The notes below the pieces were generated by a model. The model made no database searches. It was not told where the DNA came from and was given only the letters and a program-made list of their open reading frames with translations. From Gammaproteobacteria bacterium (GTDB lineage Bacteria; Pseudomonadota; Gammaproteobacteria; Eutrophobiales; Eutrophobiaceae): DNA of 64,000 bases. Position 1 is the first letter of the stretch. The number at the start of each line of letters is the position of its first letter. Of this stretch, positions 26,314 to 63,026 are shown one piece after another. The translations under genes were made by a program, and so were the position numbers. Location: assembly GCA_965116585.1 (NCBI GenBank), contig OZ220714.1:159651-223650 (forward strand), in the 5' to 3' direction.

Positions 26314-26422
26314 CATACCCACAGTATGCCACATGCAGCGCGTGAGTCACAGGGACAGAATGAATCCCGCTCCCCGGAATATACAAAAAATGTGTGTTTC
26401 CGGAATTGGGTTTTTGGGTACA

Positions 26423-27787
26423 ATGGATGCCATATTAACAGTGGCCCGTATAACTCCCGTGACTCGATTTTTCCCATTTGCCGGTCTTCTTCTTATCCTG
26501 GTGTGCGCCGGAGGGAGTTTGCGCGCCGAGGAAAATGATGCCTACGAAGTCATCGACAGGGAATTGCTCAAGGAAGACGATGAGGAAACCCGGCCTGCGG
26601 CACAGGACGACGCGGCAAGCAGCGCAACTTCCACCGCCGGGGAAGCTGTGGAACTACCTGGGGAAACACTTGAGGAACCAGCCGGGGAACCGGTTACCGC
26701 GCAGGAGGACGCGGACGCCGATGCCTTGGACTCCGCTTACGCCGCGTTGCAAAACCAGGAGTACGATATAGCTTACGACCTGTTTTACACCTTCGCCTCC
26801 GGGGACAATGCGCAGGCCCAGTATGAACTGGCCGCGCTCTATCATCGCGGCGCCGGCGTGGAGGCGGATATTGCCAGGGCGGCGCGCTGGTACGCGCGCG
26901 CCGCTGAACTGGGCTATGCGGACGCCCAGTACCGGTTGGGCAATATGTTCCTGATGGGGGAAGGCATGCGCCAGAGCGATTCGGAGGCGGTACACTGGTA
27001 CGAACAGGCGGCGCAGCAAGGCCATGCCGATGCAAAAAGCAATCTTGCCAGCCTGCGGCGCATCAGTTCGGCCAAGACCCGGCAGGAACTGGAACAGGAA
27101 GCCGCATCCTTGCCGCCGCTTGAGGTCGAACGCAAACCTGAGCCCGGAGAAAAACCGAAAAAACGCGGTTTCTTCAAACGCTGGTTCGGCAAGGACAAGA
27201 AAACCGAACCGGCGGCAACGGCCGGTGCAGAGGTTTCCGAGTCACAGCCGCCCGCGTCCGAATCGTCCGCGGCGCCCGACACAACGGCGCCGCCCACCGC
27301 GCCCGTCGCGCGCCCTGCCCCGTTGGCAAATTCCACCGCGGTATCCAACTACGAACTGGGCCTGGCCTACGCCCTGGGAGACACCCTGGAGCAGGACCAG
27401 GAGCAAGCCTTTGAGTATTTCCGCAAGTCTGCGCAAGAGGGTTACGCCCCCGCTCAATACCGCCTGGGCGCAGCTTATGCCAACGGTGACGGCACGGAAC
27501 AGGACCCGGAGCAGGCGCTGGAGTGGTACCGGAAGTCTGCCCTGCAGGGCCATATTCCCGCCCAACGCAGCCTGGCGCTGGTTTACCTCAACGGCCTGGA
27601 AGACCTGACGCCGGACAAGCCCCTGGCCCTGACCTGGTACACCTTGCTGGCCGAAGACGGCAACCAGATGGATCTGCATCGGCGTGACAGCCTGCTGGAG
27701 GAACTGCCGGAGGAGGACGTGGACAGGGCTGAGGAATTGGCGGACGAAATGCGGGAAGAACTGGCGGGGACTACGGAAAGGCAATAG
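26423..27787 (+). CDS. Exported Sel1-like repeat protein (start uncertain)
   Basis: Repeated AQY.LG..Y..G.G...D...A..WY..AA.QG units in two blocks; hydrophobic N-terminus; acidic and Pro-Ala-rich linkers. Confidence 0.85.
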   Translation: MDAILTVARITPVTRFFPFAGLLLILVCAGGSLRAEENDAYEVIDRELLKEDDEETRPAAQDDAASSATSTAGEAVELPGETLEEPAGEPVTAQEDADADALDSAYAALQNQEYDIAYDLFYTFASGDNAQAQYELAALYHRGAGVEADIARAARWYARAAELGYADAQYRLGNMFLMGEGMRQSDSEAVHWYEQAAQQGHADAKSNLASLRRISSAKTRQELEQEAASLPPLEVERKPEPGEKPKKRGFFKRWFGKDKKTEPAATAGAEVSESQPPASESSAAPDTTAPPTAPVARPAPLANSTAVSNYELGLAYALGDTLEQDQEQAFEYFRKSAQEGYAPAQYRLGAAYANGDGTEQDPEQALEWYRKSALQGHIPAQRSLALVYLNGLEDLTPDKPLALTWYTLLAEDGNQMDLHRRDSLLEELPEEDVDRAEELADEMREELAGTTERQ

Positions 27788-27856
27788 GGCACCTCTAAAA
27801 ATTAGAGGTGCCCTAGTACTCTTTCAATTTAATTCTGATCGATCGATGGGTCAAGA

Positions 27857-28120
27857 TTAATCGAGTGGTGGTAATTGATAGACGGGTATGGCCAAGGCCA
27901 GGCTGCGGGGGCTGCCAGGTTGTTTATGGATGAGTCCTTTCTCGTTCAACTGGGTCAACATGCGGTGGACAGACGGGGGGGTGACTTGGAAGTAACGTTG
28001 TAAATCGGCCTGTGCGGGGGCTTGGCCGTTGACTTTGGTGTAGTAGTGGATGAAGGCGAGGTACTGGCCTTGCAGATAGGTGTAGTGGGGGGGTATTTTT
28101 TGCGTGTCAGGGATCGACAT
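27857..28120 (-). CDS. LexA-N/MarR-like winged-helix DNA-binding protein (IS passenger)
   Basis: YTYLQGQYLAFIHYYTKVNGQAPAQADLQRYFQVTPPSVHRMLTQLNEKGLIHKQPGSPRSL. This is the real 87-aa part of track ORF 27857..28600. Confidence 0.75.
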   Translation of the reverse strand: MSIPDTQKIPPHYTYLQGQYLAFIHYYTKVNGQAPAQADLQRYFQVTPPSVHRMLTQLNEKGLIHKQPGSPRSLALAIPVYQLPPLD

Positions 28121-28171
28121 GGCGGGTATTTTATGATCTATTATAGCCTTTAACAAGAGAGGGCTAAGGTC

Positions 28172-29296
28172 ATGCAGGTACGGTACAGAGTCGTACTGAC
28201 GGAGGCGGAGCGGGACTATCTGGAGCGGTTCACGGGTCAGGGGAAGCCCTCGGCCCGGGCCATGAAGCGGGCGCAGGTGTTGCTGTTGGCGGACGGGGGG
28301 TCTCGGCAGGGGGTGGAGATTGTCGAGGCATTGGGGGTGAGCAGCTCGACGGTGTACCGGGTGAAGCGGGATTTTGTGGAGTACGGGTTGGCGGCGGCGT
28401 TGTCGGAAGGGTCTCGTTCGGGACAGCCGCGCAAGACGGAGGCGCATGAGGATGCGTTGCTGGTATCGATTGCGTGCAGCACCCCGCCGGCGGGTCGGTG
28501 TCGCTGGACGCTGTCGTTGTTGGCGGCGCGCTGGGTGGCGTTGACGGATATGGAGGCGGTGTCGCTGGAGTGCATACGGCAGCGGTTGAAGGCGAATCAA
28601 TTAAAGCCCTGGCAGCGGAAGATGTGGTGTTTGGGGCAGCTGGATGCGGCGTATATTGCGCAGATGGAGCAGATACTGGATGTGTACGCTGAGCCGTTCT
28701 GTCCTGAGAGACCACTGGTGAACGTGGATGAGGCGGGCAAGCAGTTGGTGGGGGAGGTACAGGCGGGCCGGCCAATGACCCCGGGGCAGGTGAGCAAGGT
28801 GGATTATGAATACGAGCGCAAGGGGGTGGCTAACATTTATCTGTGTTTTGACCGGCACCGTGGCTGGCGTCATGCCAAGGTGACGAAGACCAAGAAGGCG
28901 GCTGATTTTGCCGAGTTGATGCGGGAGTTGGTGGATGTGCACTACCCCGATGCTGAGTGCATCCGGGTGGTGCTGGATAATTTGAACACGCACCGGCCTG
29001 CTTCGCTGTACCGGGCCTTCCCGGCGCCGGAGGCGCGGCGGGTGTTGCGCAAGCTGGCATTTCATTACACGCCCAAGCATGCCAGTTGGTTGAACATGGT
29101 AGAGATTGAGATTGGCAACATGAACCAGCAATGTCTGGACCGTCGTATTGACAGCATGGACTTGCTGCAATCAGAACTGGCGGCCTGGCAACAGCAACGC
29201 AATGAAGAGAAAGCCAGCATCAACTGGATGTTTGATGTTGATCAGGCCCGGACCAAACTACACCGGGCTTATGACAAGCTAACCGGTCAGAATTAA
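28172..29296 (+). CDS. IS630-family transposase
   Basis: N-terminal HTH (RAQVLLLAD, RWTLSLLA); catalytic VDE...VLDNLNTH...YTPKHASWLNMVEIE; uninterrupted 374 aa. Confidence 0.95.
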   Translation: MQVRYRVVLTEAERDYLERFTGQGKPSARAMKRAQVLLLADGGSRQGVEIVEALGVSSSTVYRVKRDFVEYGLAAALSEGSRSGQPRKTEAHEDALLVSIACSTPPAGRCRWTLSLLAARWVALTDMEAVSLECIRQRLKANQLKPWQRKMWCLGQLDAAYIAQMEQILDVYAEPFCPERPLVNVDEAGKQLVGEVQAGRPMTPGQVSKVDYEYERKGVANIYLCFDRHRGWRHAKVTKTKKAADFAELMRELVDVHYPDAECIRVVLDNLNTHRPASLYRAFPAPEARRVLRKLAFHYTPKHASWLNMVEIEIGNMNQQCLDRRIDSMDLLQSELAAWQQQRNEEKASINWMFDVDQARTKLHRAYDKLTGQN

Positions 29297-29607
29297 ATTG
29301 AAAGAGTACTAGCAGCATAGGGATATGCTGCCATTTAATCATGACGTTCATCCTGAACGTCACCCTTCGGGCAGCTTGTGCTGTGCCAATCGGCTGTCCT
29401 GCCGATTGGTCACGCAAGTGATTGAAAATGAAGGAAACGGAAAATCGCACATTCGTTTCCGTCTCTAAAAATGCCAAGGATGGCATTTTTAGAGGTTACT
29501 AATAATCAAAGCAGGAAGCGCCTGATGCAGACCCCTGCTTGCGCAGGAGTGGTTCCTTCGATATAGCCTCCTGCTTGCTCTCTACCACCCATGCCTGTGC
29601 GGGCGTG

Positions 29608-33938: not shown

Positions 33939-34053
33939 CGGATTACTCCCCAGTGTCATTCAAGTCCGTGGCGGACTCGTTCGTGGTTTTTTTCAAATAT
34001 AGCACAATCAGGCAGGCGCCTGTAACAATTAGCGGCGCCCGTGCAGCATGTCC

Positions 34054-59108: not shown

Positions 59109-61243
59109 TACCCGACGTATTCAAAATCGATTTTCTTCTCATCCACTTTAACGGCCAGTACGCTGATTCTGATCCGGTCGCCCAGGAAGAATTTCCGGCC
59201 CGAACGTTCGCCTGACAGCGAATGGGCAATGGGATCAAAGTGATAGTAATCAGTGGGCAGCGCGGAGATATGTACCAGGCCCTCAACGTAAATATCATCC
59301 AGTTCGACAAACAGGCCGAAGCCGGTGACACCGGAGATAATCCCGTTAAACACCTGGCCGGTCTTGTCCAGCATAAACTCACACTTCATGCGGGCGCTGA
59401 CGTCACGCACCGCCTCCTCGGCCCGCCGCTCGGTCATGGAACAATGCGCACCTAGCTGGTGTACGTCGTTTTTGTCGTACTCATAAGCTGCATTTTCCAC
59501 GATGTGGCGCAGCGCGCGGTGCACCAGCAGGTCGGGATAACGCCGGATCGGCGAGGTAAAATGCGTGTAGTGCTCGAAGGACAGGCCGAAATGACCCAGA
59601 TTCCTGCCCTCGTACACGGCCAGTGGCATACTGCGCAACAACACCGTCTCGATCAGGTGTTTATCTTCCCGGGTTCTGACCTGTTCCAGCAGGTTGGCAT
59701 AATCTCCGGCCGTGGGATCCAGGCCGCCCCCCAGTTCCAGGTTGAAATCGGCCAGGAACTTGCCGAGGTCGTTGAGTTTTTCCTGGTTCGGCGTGCCGTG
59801 ATTGCGAAACACACAGGGAACCTGCTGCTCCAGCAGGAACTGTGCCACCGAGACATTGGCCGCCAGCATGAATTCCTCGATGATTTTGTGGGCGTCATTG
59901 CGTTCCAGCGCGCGGATATCGCTCACCCCGCCCTGCTCATCAAAATACATCCTGATTTCGCTGGAAGAAAAATCCAGTAACCCCTGCTGCTGCCTGTGTG
60001 CATTCATGAGCCGGAACAACTCGTGCATGTCCCTGAGGTGCGGCACAAGGGAGTTATATTTTTCCTGCCCATTATTTTCGGGCGCATTGTTACCGGCCAG
60101 GATGTCGCTGACCTGGTTGTAGGTAAGGCGGGCGCTGGAGCGGATCACGGCCGGGTACAGACGGTATTTTTTGATTTGTCCAAGCTTGTTGATACGCATA
60201 TCGCATACCATGGCCAGCCGGTCGATATCCGGTTTCAGGGAGCAGAGATCGTTGGAAAGCAGTTCCGGCAACATGGGCACAACCCGGTTGGGGAAATACA
60301 CCGAATTGCCCCGCTCATGGGCAACCCGGTCCAGGGCCGTCCCCGGTTTTACATAATGTGACACGTCCGCAATGGCAACCACCAGACGCCATTGCCGGGC
60401 CTGTTTCTCACAGTAAACCGCGTCATCGAAATCCCGGGCGTCTTCGCCGTCTATGGTCACCAGCGGCAGGTCACGCAGGTTCTCCCTGCCCTTAAGCGCC
60501 TGTTTCTGTTGCAGGCCGGCCAGTTCGTCAGTCACGTCGTCCGGCCACTGGTGGGGAATTTGGTAGGCGCGTATGGCTATTTCCGTGGCCATGTCAACGG
60601 AGCCGGCATGGCCCAGCACCTCGATTACCTTGCCCATGGGTTGGGTGTGCTTGTCGGGCTGGTGCGTGATCTCGACGACGACAAATTCGCCGGACTTGGC
60701 CTTTTTGCGCTTTTGCGGCGGCACCAGGACATCCTGGTGCAGATGTTTGTTGTCGGGGACGACAAACGAGACGTTGTCTTCCTTGTAGAAGCGCCCCACT
60801 ACCGAGTGGTTGACATGCTCAAGCACCTCAACGATAATTGCTTCCCGGCGATTGCGCCGGTCATAACCACCGTAACGCACCACGACGTGGTCGCCGTGCA
60901 ATACGCCACGCATCTGCTTCATGGACAGAAACAGGTCCTCACCGCCTTGATCAGGCCGGAAGAAACCGTAACCATCGCCGTGGCCGATGACGCGCCCGGC
61001 CACGAGGTCCATCTTGTCCAGCAGGCCATAGCCCTCGCGGCGGTTGCGGATAAGCTGGCCATCGCGCAACATGGCCTTGAGGCGCTTGCTCAGCGCCGAG
61101 CGCTCGGCAGAACTGGTGACCTCCAGGGCCTGTGCAATGTCCGTCAGTTGCAGCGGCACTCCCGAACGTTGCAAAAACTCCAAAATCTCAGTTCGTTCGG
61201 GGATTGAGACAAGGTACTTCTCACTACTTTTTTTCTTTCCCAT
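59108..61243 (-). CDS. rnr: Ribonuclease R
   Basis: N-terminal HTH, DGYGF, TIDGEDARDFDDA, IEEFMLAAN, YTHFTSPIRRYPDL, S1 domain. Confidence 0.97.
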   Translation of the reverse strand: MGKKKSSEKYLVSIPERTEILEFLQRSGVPLQLTDIAQALEVTSSAERSALSKRLKAMLRDGQLIRNRREGYGLLDKMDLVAGRVIGHGDGYGFFRPDQGGEDLFLSMKQMRGVLHGDHVVVRYGGYDRRNRREAIIVEVLEHVNHSVVGRFYKEDNVSFVVPDNKHLHQDVLVPPQKRKKAKSGEFVVVEITHQPDKHTQPMGKVIEVLGHAGSVDMATEIAIRAYQIPHQWPDDVTDELAGLQQKQALKGRENLRDLPLVTIDGEDARDFDDAVYCEKQARQWRLVVAIADVSHYVKPGTALDRVAHERGNSVYFPNRVVPMLPELLSNDLCSLKPDIDRLAMVCDMRINKLGQIKKYRLYPAVIRSSARLTYNQVSDILAGNNAPENNGQEKYNSLVPHLRDMHELFRLMNAHRQQQGLLDFSSSEIRMYFDEQGGVSDIRALERNDAHKIIEEFMLAANVSVAQFLLEQQVPCVFRNHGTPNQEKLNDLGKFLADFNLELGGGLDPTAGDYANLLEQVRTREDKHLIETVLLRSMPLAVYEGRNLGHFGLSFEHYTHFTSPIRRYPDLLVHRALRHIVENAAYEYDKNDVHQLGAHCSMTERRAEEAVRDVSARMKCEFMLDKTGQVFNGIISGVTGFGLFVELDDIYVEGLVHISALPTDYYHFDPIAHSLSGERSGRKFFLGDRIRISVLAVKVDEKKIDFEYVG

Positions 61244-61254
61244 TCACATATCCA

Positions 61255-61283
61255 TTGACAGCCCTTGCCCGTAACGGTAGAGT
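61255..61283 (+). promoter_or_regulatory. Sigma70-type promoter directed at tRNA-Leu
   Basis: TTGACA (61255-61260), 17-nt spacer, TAGAGT (61278-61283). Confidence 0.65.
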
Positions 61284-61314
61284 CCGTCGTTTCAAAAAAC
61301 CTGATTGTACACCA

Positions 61315-61534
61315 AGTAACCTCTAAAAATGCCATCCTTGGCATTTTTAGAGACGGAAACGAAAAAATGCGATTTTCCGTTTCCTTCGTTATTAATCACT
61401 TACGTGACCAATCGGCAGGACTGCCGATTGGCGCAGCGCAAGCTGCCCGAAGGGTGACGTTCAGGATGAACGTCACGATTAAATGGCAGCATATCCCTAT
61501 GCTGCACGGGCACCTCTAATTTTTAGAGGTGCCC
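61315..61534 (-). mobile_element. MITE copy 2 (intact, 220 bp)
   Basis: Flanked by a 4-bp direct repeat ACCA (61311-61314 and 61535-61538); reverse complement of copy 1; made of consecutive hairpins. Confidence 0.9.
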
Positions 61535-61544
61535 ACCAGATCAT

Positions 61545-61631
61545 GCCGAGGTGGCGGAATTGGTAGACGCGCTAGCTTCAGGTGTTAGTGGGGGTAACCC
61601 CGTGAAGGTTCAAGTCCTTTCCTCGGCACCA
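61545..61631 (+). tRNA. tRNA-Leu (CAG)
   Basis: Acceptor stem gccgagg/cctcggc-ACCA, D-loop TGGTAGAC, anticodon arm ctagc-tt-CAG-gt-gttag, long variable arm, GGTTCAAGTCC T-arm. Confidence 0.97.
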
Positions 61632-61637
61632 GCTGTT

Positions 61638-61727
61638 GAATTAAGAATTAGGAATTAGGAATGAACGTGCCGTCTGGTGCGGCAGTTTTTATTGCTCCAA
61701 TTCATTAACTCCTAATTCTTAATTCCC
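61638..61727. repeat. Inverted heptamer tandem-repeat element D
   Basis: gaattaagaattaggaattaggaatg, then gtgccgtctggtgcggca, then taactcctaattcttaattccc; lies between convergent tRNA-Leu and purA. Confidence 0.85.
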
Positions 61728-61730
61728 ACA

Positions 61731-63026
<1,296 letters not shown>

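Follow-up and report, generated by a model that had tools for sequence, protein, structure and literature searches.

MITEs are usually treated as decayed ISs whose interiors drift. Among small inverted-repeat elements, the Correia elements (CREE/NEMIS) of Neisseria and the ERIC/IRU elements of enterobacteria are co-transcribed and form RNA hairpins that can affect the fate of the transcript; Correia elements generate a TA duplication, carry inverted repeats of ~26 bp, and fold mainly into one long hairpin by end-to-end pairing. MITEs derived from the IS5 family are known, for example from Porphyromonas gingivalis (PMC4596501), and an 'IS1106_IS5' MITE class is named in PMC11602168; in the accessible portions of these two papers, no conserved structured cargo is described for such MITEs. 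The TwoAYGGAY motif (Rfam RF01731; Weinberg 2010, PMC2864571, available in part) is presented in the accessible text of a 2026 preprint (10.64898/2026.09.22.753630) as a pair of neighbouring hairpins that have AYGGAY loops and share a basal stem; that text proposes it as a binding platform for Csr/Rsm, takes its copy number to suggest mobility, and regards the question of how mobility and regulation are connected as unresolved. CsrA itself, according to the available part of PMC4383904, binds a short hairpin hosting GGA, and such motifs usually occur in pairs.

The window analysed here, a 64,000-nucleotide stretch of a gammaproteobacterial genome (G000), carries an element that is very probably a non-autonomous MITE of an IS5-group IS, an explanation that we extend to the whole of its make-up, including a ~150-bp five-hairpin unit and a repeat nested within it. 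As far as IS5-derived MITEs are characterised in the accessible portions of the papers above, the element is like them in being short and non-coding, with ends matching those of IS5-family ISs, a short duplication, many intergenic copies, and mobilisation that would occur in trans; it differs in having an interior that is unrelated to the partner IS yet conserved, holding to ~150 nt and five covarying hairpins, in 27 of the 150 other families sampled from the class. With the Correia and ERIC elements it shares the general plan of a small inverted-repeat element with hairpins, whereas its 4-bp duplication, 16-bp repeats, five local hairpins and conserved GGA loops set it apart from the Correia elements. 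The TwoAYGGAY family differs in the order of its hairpins, and its Rfam model finds no match here; the element's means of mobility are explicit (inverted repeats, a duplication and an IS5-group partner). Like the sRNAs CsrB, RsmY and RsmZ, the element shows GGA in short hairpin loops, but those sRNAs have genes of their own, with a promoter, a terminator and many GGA sites, whereas the element is a transposon with two such loops and no recognisable promoter, found in both orientations. No published description of the element was found in the literature, which cannot be searched by sequence and whose supplementary sequence files may hold one, nor did we find a paper linking MITEs with CsrA.

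At the window locus the long form of the element occupies positions 61315..61534 on the minus strand (220 bp; score of 126 bits with covariance model R2) and is flanked by the two copies of an ACCA target-site duplication (61311..61314 and 61535..61538). The motif ACCTCTAAAAAT, which the initial annotation had found to be shared by the two ends, indeed lies in both, and the full terminal inverted repeats, GGGCACCTCTAAAAAT and AGTAACCTCTAAAAAT, are 16 bp long and imperfect: they agree at 13 of the 16 bases and share a 12-base core. The left repeat, GGGCACCTCTAAAAAT (61519..61534, minus strand), is the same as the ends of IS5-group relatives and forms the outer arm of hairpin H1; the right repeat, AGTAACCTCTAAAAAT in the plus-strand reading, lies at 61315..61330 (minus strand). 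In the sister species G010 and G005 the site is empty, with a single ACCA between a conserved tRNA-Leu promoter and the tRNA gene. The promoter-like site in both species reads TTGACA, 17 bases, TAAAGT; its counterpart in the window (TTGACA, 17 bases, TAGAGT; 61255..61283, plus strand) has been parted by the insertion from the tRNA-Leu (CAG) gene (61545..61631, plus strand), which begins 10 bp from the element, and the window copy is oriented antisense to the tRNA-Leu transcript. An 84-aa ORF (61265-61519) crosses the window copy. A promoter and terminator scan of 60900-61800 gave no site within the element, and a by-eye search for an internal promoter likewise gave nothing convincing. A 166-nt contig assembled from an RNA library covers 61241-61407, spanning flank and element, and starts upstream of the promoter-like site; it may derive from DNA, and strand, ends and level are not readable from such contigs.

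The 220-bp form, taken in the initial annotation as the unit, is a rare composite: the canonical unit is ~150 bp long and has five hairpins, and the window copy consists of this common form plus an unrelated ~71-75-bp repeat nested in H3. Top-strand positions 55-127 of the long form, a stretch of ~73 bases in its middle, are the nested repeat; short copies lack them and have a TCGA joint instead. On the minus strand of the window, H1 (61508..61534) is followed by H2 (61486..61505; GCAGCATA-GGGA-TATGCTGC in the minimum-energy fold, with GGA in the loop), by the nested repeat (61406..61483, boundaries approximate), by the inner part of H3 (61396..61407; TCAC-GTAA-GTGA), whose outer stem the nested repeat has split, by H4 (61355..61384; GGAAACGGAAAA ... 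TTTTCGTTTCC in the minimum-energy fold), and by H5 (61321..61352; CTCTAAAAATGCCA-AGGA-TGGCATTTTTAGAG, again with GGA in the loop), the 3' arm of which falls within the right inverted repeat. H1 and H5 are built alike: in each, a terminal repeat pairs with its own inverted copy in the interior. The nested repeat belongs to a separate family, with four small hairpins including cUUCGg; its relatives occur elsewhere in 20 of the 23 genomes of the genus (~150 copies in all), and some are nested at differing places within another MITE family. The RNA-like feature of this family, a UNCG tetraloop, is on the strand whose loops have UCC. GGA loops are thus present on both strands of the window copy, as had been described, but those on the opposite strand are the nested repeat's own, and the idea of one unit depositing GGA modules in either orientation is not supported. 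For annotation, the 220-bp 'structured RNA' of the window is two nested repeats and not a single RNA gene.

The claim of two copies, each with a 4-bp duplication of its own (ACCA for the window copy, AATA for copy 2), holds, coordinates included. Copy 2 lies on the plus strand between AATA at 27783..27786 and AATA at 29501..29504; the insertion is within the stop codon of the ORF at 26333-27787, which it turned from TAA into TAG. The left part of copy 2 (27787..27815) comprises H1 and the TA target of an IS630-family IS, which is 1494 bp long with its own TA duplication (27816..29309, plus strand) and encodes a 374-aa transposase (28172-29296); the right part (29310..29500) holds H2, the nested repeat and H3-H5. 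A degenerate left-end fragment, with H1 and the start of H2, lies at 34015..34049 on the plus strand (positions 193665-193699 of G000; 86% over 35 bases). Exact matches to the left repeat number 39 in this genome and 66 in G005, which has several hundred candidate copies of the element; with no occurrence here of the reversed control pattern, the abundance of repeat ends in this genome is far beyond chance. The 220-bp long form is rare, with three copies in this genome and one in G014. A perfect 4-bp duplication flanks 48 of the 61 short copies collected from 11 genomes of the genus and 28 of the 38 two-ended elements of this genome, and all intact copies inspected in this genome have a 4-bp duplication at their flanks. 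Deletion derivatives of 27, 44 and 66 bp have retained both ends and have duplications of their own. The inverted repeats, the 4-bp duplications, the empty site and the many copies together bear out the proposal of a non-autonomous transposon.

A guess that the element is mobilised by the IS5 family is also upheld: in sister species, ISs of the IS5 group (NF033581) have ends that match at 13-14 of 16 bases and 4-bp AT-rich duplications, and distant relatives carry GGGCACCTCTAAAAAT exactly. The 346-aa transposase of G005 matches NCBIfam NF033581 (IS5 family) with an E-value of 9.9e-84 and has DUF772 and DDE_Tnp_1 domains; matches to it, full-length copies and fragments together, number 15 in G018, 23 in G020 and 17 in G001. 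Of ten IS copies whose ends were examined, all eight that come from G018 and G020 have the termini AGGAACCTCTATTAAT ... GGTTCCC, and perfect duplications flank six of the eight (TATA, TAAA, TTAA, TTAA, ATAA and TTAT). Relatives of the transposase with 52-57% identity in other lineages have ends that read GGGCACCTCTAAAAAT exactly (16/16), with TTAA or ATAT duplications, and copies of the element in other families of the class are flanked by TTAA, TTAG or CTAG. A transposase of this kind, supplied in trans, would recognise the 16-bp terminal inverted repeats GGGCACCTCTAAAAAT and AG[T/G]AACCTCTAAAAAT and would insert the element at AT-rich sites, duplicating 4 bp.

This genome gave no match to the transposase, and no pairs of matching ends 0.5-4 kb apart. 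Since the matching transposase is absent, the copies in this genome are probably stranded, and mobilisation by an IS5-group IS rests on the matching ends and duplications in other genomes, where the ISs within the genus match at no more than 13-14 of 16 bases. Two ISs of this genome, found by a DDE_Tnp_1 search, were considered as partners and set aside: a single-copy IS, which is unrelated, and a 1.77-kb multi-copy IS, which has other ends. A distant BLAST search of plasmids with a ~150-bp copy returned nothing, and at the protein level plasmids yielded generic 'IS5 family transposase' names alone, below 60% identity.

All eight of the stems listed from the window copy are present in its minimum-energy fold. 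The GGGCACC-first strand folds at -114.5 kcal/mol (z -12.24, with none of 200 shuffles as good), and the opposite strand does just as well (-111.1 kcal/mol, z -12.25). The initial annotation held that differences between copies avoid the stems or keep pairing; in the long copies the signal is weak (of 14 differences between copy 1 and copy 2, eight are unpaired, and one of the six in stems keeps its pair), and strong support comes from the wider family. Within the genus, both-sided changes occur in 17 of 57 pairs and 99.1% of cells pair, which none of 500 shuffles reaches. When 16 copies from other genera are added, both-sided changes rise to 41 of the 57 pairs, in an alignment that was fitted to the covariance model, and 98.3% of cells pair, versus 80.3% after shuffling. 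A MAFFT alignment of the same genus and other-genus copies misaligned H1 and H5, so that RNAalifold paired the two ends, and the model-guided alignment A4 was used instead. Among 150 other families sampled across the class, 27 contain a full-length match to covariance model R2. No Rfam family matched any of 21 genus copies, the window copy among them, at E <= 10, nor any of the 16 other-genus copies at E <= 1.

The stems also differ between strands in how they change. Parsimony gives 48 changes of the G:T type versus 10 of the A:C type, and for H2-H5 alone 42 versus 3, with H1 symmetric at 6 versus 7; cell-based counts of wobble pairs give 144 G:T versus 11 A:C, and a second count 69 versus 9. 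The bias falls on the GGGCACC-first strand, which is the one that bears GGA. In alignment A4, GGA is kept in the loop of H2 in 30 of 31 copies and in the loop of H5 in 30 of 31, and both loops have it in 10 of 10 class-level copies. The two loops read ANGGAN, where N is A, G, C or T; across families the stems all vary, as do the loop bases around GGA, yet GGA itself does not change. The heavy covariation, the near-invariant GGA of two loops and the excess of G:T wobble on the strand that bears it are compatible with an RNA role.

What keeps the interior constant is a question on which several explanations differ. The five-hairpin core may be conserved for a function that its GGGCACC-first strand has in single-stranded form, the simplest case being RNA made by read-through from adjacent genes; judged from sequence comparison, we consider this a real possibility that falls a little short of an even chance. 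A property at the level of DNA, without any RNA role, is rather less probable. Template switching during replication or repair may keep the arms of near-palindromes complementary, as known for quasipalindrome correction from work in E. coli; alternatively, hairpin or cruciform DNA could aid the transposase or a host DNA-binding protein, with the GGA loops as centres of protein-binding palindromes. The terminal-repeat design of H1 and H5, the symmetric wobble of H1 and the equal folding of both strands of the window copy all suit such an account, as does the fact that the 27- and 44-bp derivatives, each a single hairpin, still transpose or persist with duplications. Gene orientation suits it too, being random: in tandem gene contexts 16 copies are sense and 13 antisense, a count from which one spurious row among 17 sense cases has been dropped, which uses the gene calls of a crude caller, and for which p = 0.58 was computed on 17:13. 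Template switching, however, predicts perfect pairs and no strand bias, whereas H2-H5 show the 42 to 3 excess of G:T-type changes, and the constancy of GGA amid varying loop bases and stems also speaks against an account in DNA alone. Orientation relative to the replication strand is unbiased (17 versus 23), so single-stranded lagging-strand DNA is no explanation for the strand signal. The same absence of a lagging-strand bias counts against the reading as a palindromic element of REP/BIME or IS200/IS605 type, which a Y1 (HUH) transposase would move in the form of single-stranded DNA; hairpins at both ends and a strand-specific wobble signal would agree with that reading. To our knowledge, elements of those types have neither target duplications nor terminal inverted repeats, and the present element has both in nearly every copy; by its regular 4-bp duplications and matching IS5-group ends this reading is already refuted.

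Of the readings in which the single-stranded molecule is RNA, the most specific would make the element primarily a dispersed CsrA/RsmA-binding module, whose co-transcribed copies offer two GGA hairpins to a CsrA dimer and serve as a sponge or place their neighbours under Csr control; this we hold to be unlikely, as we do, to the same degree, the narrower proposition that the GGA loops of H2 and H5 bind a CsrA/RsmA-type protein. The class-level reading of H2, ACAGGGAUGU, agrees with the CsrA SELEX consensus, RUACARGGAUGU, and the common reading of H5, CAGGAUG, is that of the CsrB repeat. GGA in short, paired hairpin loops, the arrangement described in the available part of PMC4383904, is found in H2 and H5, where it is near-invariant across the class-wide sample, and the wobble bias lies on the same strand. 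This genome has a CsrA gene (G000 1265884-1266039), and the Rfam models for CsrB, RsmZ and RsmY gave no match above cut-off. Against this stand the 13 of 29 tandem-context copies that are antisense to their neighbours, the distance of ~95 nt between the GGA sites of the 150-bp form, which exceeds the optimal spacing, and the weakness that selection on any one copy of a multi-copy sponge would have. CsrA is, moreover, about equally common with and without the element (23 of 27 element-bearing and 99 of 123 element-free genomes), and since 122 of 150 genomes have it, class-wide co-occurrence with the element is uninformative. Membership of the TwoAYGGAY family (RF01731) is very improbable, despite a general likeness: both are multi-copy, multi-hairpin and found in Pseudomonadota, both have GGA loops, and the accessible text of the preprint reports three extra hairpins, a copy number that varies greatly and an expansion termed 'mobile-element-like' (10.64898/2026.09.22.753630). 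RF01731 itself did not match the window copy and 20 genus copies at E <= 10 or the 16 other-genus copies at E <= 1, and its three hits in the whole genome are below cut-off (33, 28 and 24 bits versus 43), none at a MITE copy; the GGA hairpins H2 and H5 are separated by H3 and H4 and not adjacent on a common basal stem, and the loop is ANGGAN, which is not always AYGGAY. Other points that count against an RNA role are the equal folding of both strands of the window copy, its position antisense to the tRNA-Leu transcript and the unbiased orientation relative to the replication strand. Given the random gene orientation and the lack of an Rfam match, an RNA or CsrA role for the GGA-bearing strand is plausible but unproven.

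Together, these comparisons describe an element that is known in kind as a MITE, and in which the conserved five-hairpin interior with GGA loops would be the variant feature. It reverses the usual picture of MITEs, in that the interior is conserved, with compensating stem changes, a wobble bias on one strand and GGA loops across at least 27 other sampled families, a pattern which implies that something other than the transposase constrains the cargo. That an IS5-borne MITE carries a ready-made two-site CsrA/RsmA-binding RNA module, spread through many families of Gammaproteobacteria, is an improbable reading, slightly more so than CsrA binding as such; if true, transposition would rewire or buffer the Csr/Rsm post-transcriptional network, and the element would explain mechanistically how mobility and repeat RNAs with GGA hairpins are connected, a point that the accessible text of the TwoAYGGAY preprint leaves open (10.64898/2026.09.22.753630). 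With its partner enzyme and its ends both defined, and with natural derivatives as short as 27 bp, the family is a clean system for separating RNA function from DNA mechanics as the cause of hairpin conservation. Should CsrA binding prove to be the constraint, transposition would be a way to spread binding sites or decoys for this regulator across the transcriptome.

The 220-bp element of the window (61315-61534, minus strand, between ACCA flanks at 61311-61314 and 61535-61538) and its second, IS-interrupted copy (27787-29500, plus strand, AATA flanks) are insertions with 4-bp duplications, as the initial annotation had described them. The genome search for copy number and target duplications that it proposed returns 67 matching pieces in the genome holding the window (G000; 3.81 Mb, one contig), and at the ends of every intact copy inspected there is a 4-bp AT-rich direct repeat, each copy having its own (TGGT, ATTA, ATAA, TAAA, TAAA, ATAC, ATAA, AGAA, ATCT, TTAA, TGAA, TTCA and AGTA). 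A scan for ends finds 38 two-ended elements in G000, of which 28 have a perfect duplication; among the 38 are derivative forms of 27, 44 and 66 bp, which are barely more than two ends. Exact matches to the left end, GGGCRCCTCTAAAAAT, number 39 in G000, 66 in the sister-species genome G005 and 24 in G007, while its reversed control occurs 0 times. Across 11 genomes of the genus, 61 short copies were collected, and 48 have a perfect 4-bp duplication. What did not hold up is the 220-bp stretch as the transposing unit: the long form has only three copies in G000 (the two in the window and 1803508-1803725), and the common form, of about 150 bp, lacks the ~73 bases (top-strand 55-127) that make up the middle of the long one.

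The 27-bp elements consist of the two terminal repeats only (GGGCACCTCTAAAAATTAGAGGTTCCT) and lie outside the window at G000 positions 144214-144240, 869074-869100, 2382279-2382305, 2402301-2402327, 2598317-2598343, 2651781-2651807 and 2875690-2875716, among others; most of them have a perfect 4-bp duplication of their own. The presence of eight near-identical 27-mers at separate sites suggests that this substrate is itself mobile, which, if true, would make it an unusually small transposable unit. A 1.77-kb multi-copy IS of G000, present in 10 copies with ends CCCGCATATCTCACC... and a YTAG duplication, is found at 1561007-1562781 and 3602858-3604632, outside the window, in the same TTAG of the right terminal repeat in two different MITE copies. 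The two insertions are independent, and the shared site is due to the target preference of the IS.

The element in the window adjoins a tRNA-Leu (CAG) gene (61545-61631), the sole Rfam match in the region, and sits between that gene and its promoter-like site at 61255-61283, with ~250 bp separating the two in G000 after the insertion. At the orthologous locus of G010 and G005, the two closest species having it, the conserved tRNA-Leu promoter is separated from the gene by sequence with a single ACCA and no element; this is the empty site. The leader has been hit twice, by the 220-bp element in G000 and, elsewhere in the leader, by a 27-bp mini-element in G005; neither is present in G010. The second window copy carries, between the first two hairpins, a complete 1494-bp IS (27816-29309), perfectly inverted at its ends and flanked by a TA duplication of its own; the 374-aa product of this IS matches the IS630 family (NF033545, E 2.5e-63). 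The insertion point of this copy (27783-27787) is the stop codon of a 484-aa ORF (26333-27787), which has changed from TAA to TAG; because the stop is rebuilt from the duplicated TA and the element's first G, the protein is unchanged.

The chain of stems that the initial annotation read from the GGGCACC end is reproduced in the 220-nt fold of that strand (-114.5 kcal/mol, z -12.24; 0 of 200 shuffles as good), and the opposite strand has an equally stable fold (-111.1 kcal/mol, z -12.25). The chain is made of two parts. The extra ~73 bases of the long form sit within H3, the third of the five hairpins (H1-H5) of the ~150-bp unit, and fold into small hairpins of their own, including one capped by a cUUCGg loop. 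At other places in the genome, related sequences of 76-86% identity are nested at differing positions in copies of another MITE family. This nested ~75-bp repeat of four hairpins (window 61406-61483; G000 392350, 609067, 1423865, 2157391 and 2980648) has matches in 20 of the 23 genomes of the genus, at most 25 per genome. Twelve distinct copies share a plan of (T)TCATTG, a UCCC-loop hairpin, CCC-UNCG-GGG, a small covarying hairpin and a UGUCCU-loop hairpin, the N of the UNCG loop being T, A or G; in these twelve, neither inverted ends nor a duplication were seen. The repeat is a family of its own that inserts into other MITEs, and the window copy is a composite of the canonical 150-bp five-hairpin unit and this second family. 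The GGA loops on the "other strand" belong to the nested repeat, where they read UCC on its UNCG strand, so the earlier picture of one unit offering GGA loops in either orientation fails.

G000 has no two matching ends at a spacing of 0.5-4 kb, and the DDE_Tnp_1 genes of that genome are ruled out as the partner, all being in unrelated elements. A 1.27-kb IS in G005, with ends GGGCACCATCTATTAAT and AGGCAACCTCTATAAAT, encodes a 346-aa protein matching NF033581 (IS5 family, E 9.9e-84) and containing DUF772 and DDE_Tnp_1 domains; the same type is multi-copy in three sister species (15 matches in G018, 23 in G020 and 17 in G001, full-length copies and fragments counted together), and its transposase has no match in G000. 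Ends were examined in ten IS copies. Those from G018 and G020, eight in number, have AGGAACCTCTATTAAT at one end and GGTTCCC at the other, and a perfect duplication flanks six of these eight (TATA, TAAA, TTAA, TTAA, ATAA and TTAT). The in-genus IS ends agree with the element ends at 13-14 of 16 bases, and relatives of the transposase from other lineages (52-57% identity) have ends that are exactly GGGCACCTCTAAAAAT, with TTAA or ATAT flanks. Given the shared ends and duplication type, the element has the end sequences that are standard for this IS5 subgroup: it is an IS5-group MITE, its genus copies and the genus IS have end sequences and duplication length in common, and G000 has lost, or never had, the partner enzyme. 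The suggestion of possible IS5-family mobilization is thereby supported; a transposase bounded by the element's ends, which the initial annotation had said to look for, is found in sister species and, with exact ends, in other lineages, but not in G000. We infer that one of these particular enzymes moved these particular copies. IS5-family MITEs are already known (PMC4596501; PMC11602168).

Outside the genus, the element ends are GGAACC...GGTTCC, directly flanked by TTAA, TTAG or CTAG; inside it, MITE and IS both have one extra base per end and AT-rich duplications (ATAA, TAAA, TTAA). Judged from these sequences, cut position or target preference would seem to have shifted jointly in IS and MITE.

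The covariance analysis proposed earlier bears out the five-hairpin structure. Fifty distinct short copies of the genus, easily aligned, have a standard pair in 99.1% of cells and both-side changes in 17 of 57 pairs; 0 of 500 shuffles reach any of five measures, and controls with slid partners give 0-3 both-side pairs. The mean minor-allele share within the genus is 0.042 in paired versus 0.115 in unpaired columns. With a short copy as query, BLAST has matches (E ≤ 1e-5) in 34 of the 121 genomes that represent the taxonomic family and in 14 of the 34 sampled genera; in sixteen other-genus copies (71-78% identity to the query), the same five hairpins are formed by stems of largely changed sequence. 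A genus-only covariance model finds all 16 at full length (81-107 bits) and gives genus copies 159-181 bits on one strand versus 25-51 bits on the other. In a 31-sequence model-guided alignment, which was fitted to the structure and is therefore biased towards it, both sides change in 41 of 57 pairs (7-13 with slid partners) and 98.3% of cells pair, versus 80.3% in shuffles (0 of 500 as high). A second covariance model has matches at E ≤ 1e-6 in 27 out of 150 other families of the class, each represented by one genome (26 out of 149 without G263, which is unpublished), and several of these 27 genomes have at least 20 full-length matches above 100 bits each. Among ten class-level copies from ten different families, eight have a perfect 4-bp duplication (TTAA, TTAG, CTAG, ATAA or TCAA) and GGA is retained in the loops of both H2 and H5 in all ten.

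The core is also marked by strand. Non-Watson-Crick stem cells on the GGGCACC-first strand, which carries the GGA loops of H2 and H5, are G:T in 144 cases (21 columns) versus A:C in 11 (6 columns), and 69 versus 9 in the wider alignment. Parsimony on a FastTree tree gives 48 changes involving G:T versus 10 involving A:C (p = 4.5e-7 for equal expectation, indicative only, as the tree is poorly resolved and the copies are related); this bias lies entirely in H2-H5 (42 versus 3), the terminal palindrome H1 being symmetric (6 versus 7). Since copies occur in both orientations with respect to replication (17 versus 23) and to genes, a mutational bias should cancel out. GGA is kept in 30 of 31 sequences in the H2 loop and in 30 of 31 in the H5 loop, while neighbouring loop letters vary. 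We infer that the H2-H5 core is under constraint acting on one strand.

An RNA-level role of some kind for the core is a serious possibility, to which we give nearly, but not quite, even weight. The CsrA SELEX consensus has ACA and UGU as the stem around the GGA loop, and the class-level H2, ACAGGGAUGU, is one that we take to fit it. CsrA is encoded in G000, where CsrB, RsmZ and RsmY have no match above cut-off. Putative binding of the CsrA type specifically is unlikely in our estimate. CsrA is about equally common in genomes with the element (23 out of 27, the other four being 62-90% complete) and without it (99 out of 123). Also weighing against an RNA role are the orientation of copies in tandem gene contexts (16 sense versus 13 antisense, one spurious sense row having been dropped from 17; another 11 are flanked by divergent and 10 by convergent genes, 51 in all, by our own codon-usage gene caller), the position of the window copy antisense to the tRNA-Leu transcript, and the Rfam comparison that had been proposed, in which the window copy and 20 genus copies had no hit at E ≤ 10 and the 16 other-genus copies none at E ≤ 1. 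A purely DNA-level cause, whether template-switch correction of palindromes or hairpin DNA used in transposition, fits H1 and H5, both built from the element's own ends, but leaves the strand bias and the invariant GGA unexplained, and we consider it somewhat unlikely; the probability that is left falls to the core having no function.

MITEs are described in one review (PMC10969869) as AT-rich and intergenic, with transcripts whose stable stem-loops possibly act as small RNAs or terminators. Our literature text search found no paper linking MITEs with CsrA; supplementary sequences of MITE census papers could contain the element. TwoAYGGAY are known multi-copy hairpin elements with GGA loops, for which a 2026 preprint (10.64898/2026.09.22.753630) gives extended structures and median copy numbers of 11-23, up to 202. 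Membership in TwoAYGGAY is rejected, as its RF01731 model fails on this MITE family and the hairpin order differs; unlike TwoAYGGAY, this family has an explicit means of mobility. Three G000 sites outside the window (431463-431602, 1395119-1395236 and 3548751-3548868), none of them a copy of this MITE, match RF01731 below the cut-off, at 33, 28 and 24 bits, and could represent a genuine but diverged relative of TwoAYGGAY. The interest of the present family lies in its conserved, strand-marked cargo and in its breadth across the class.
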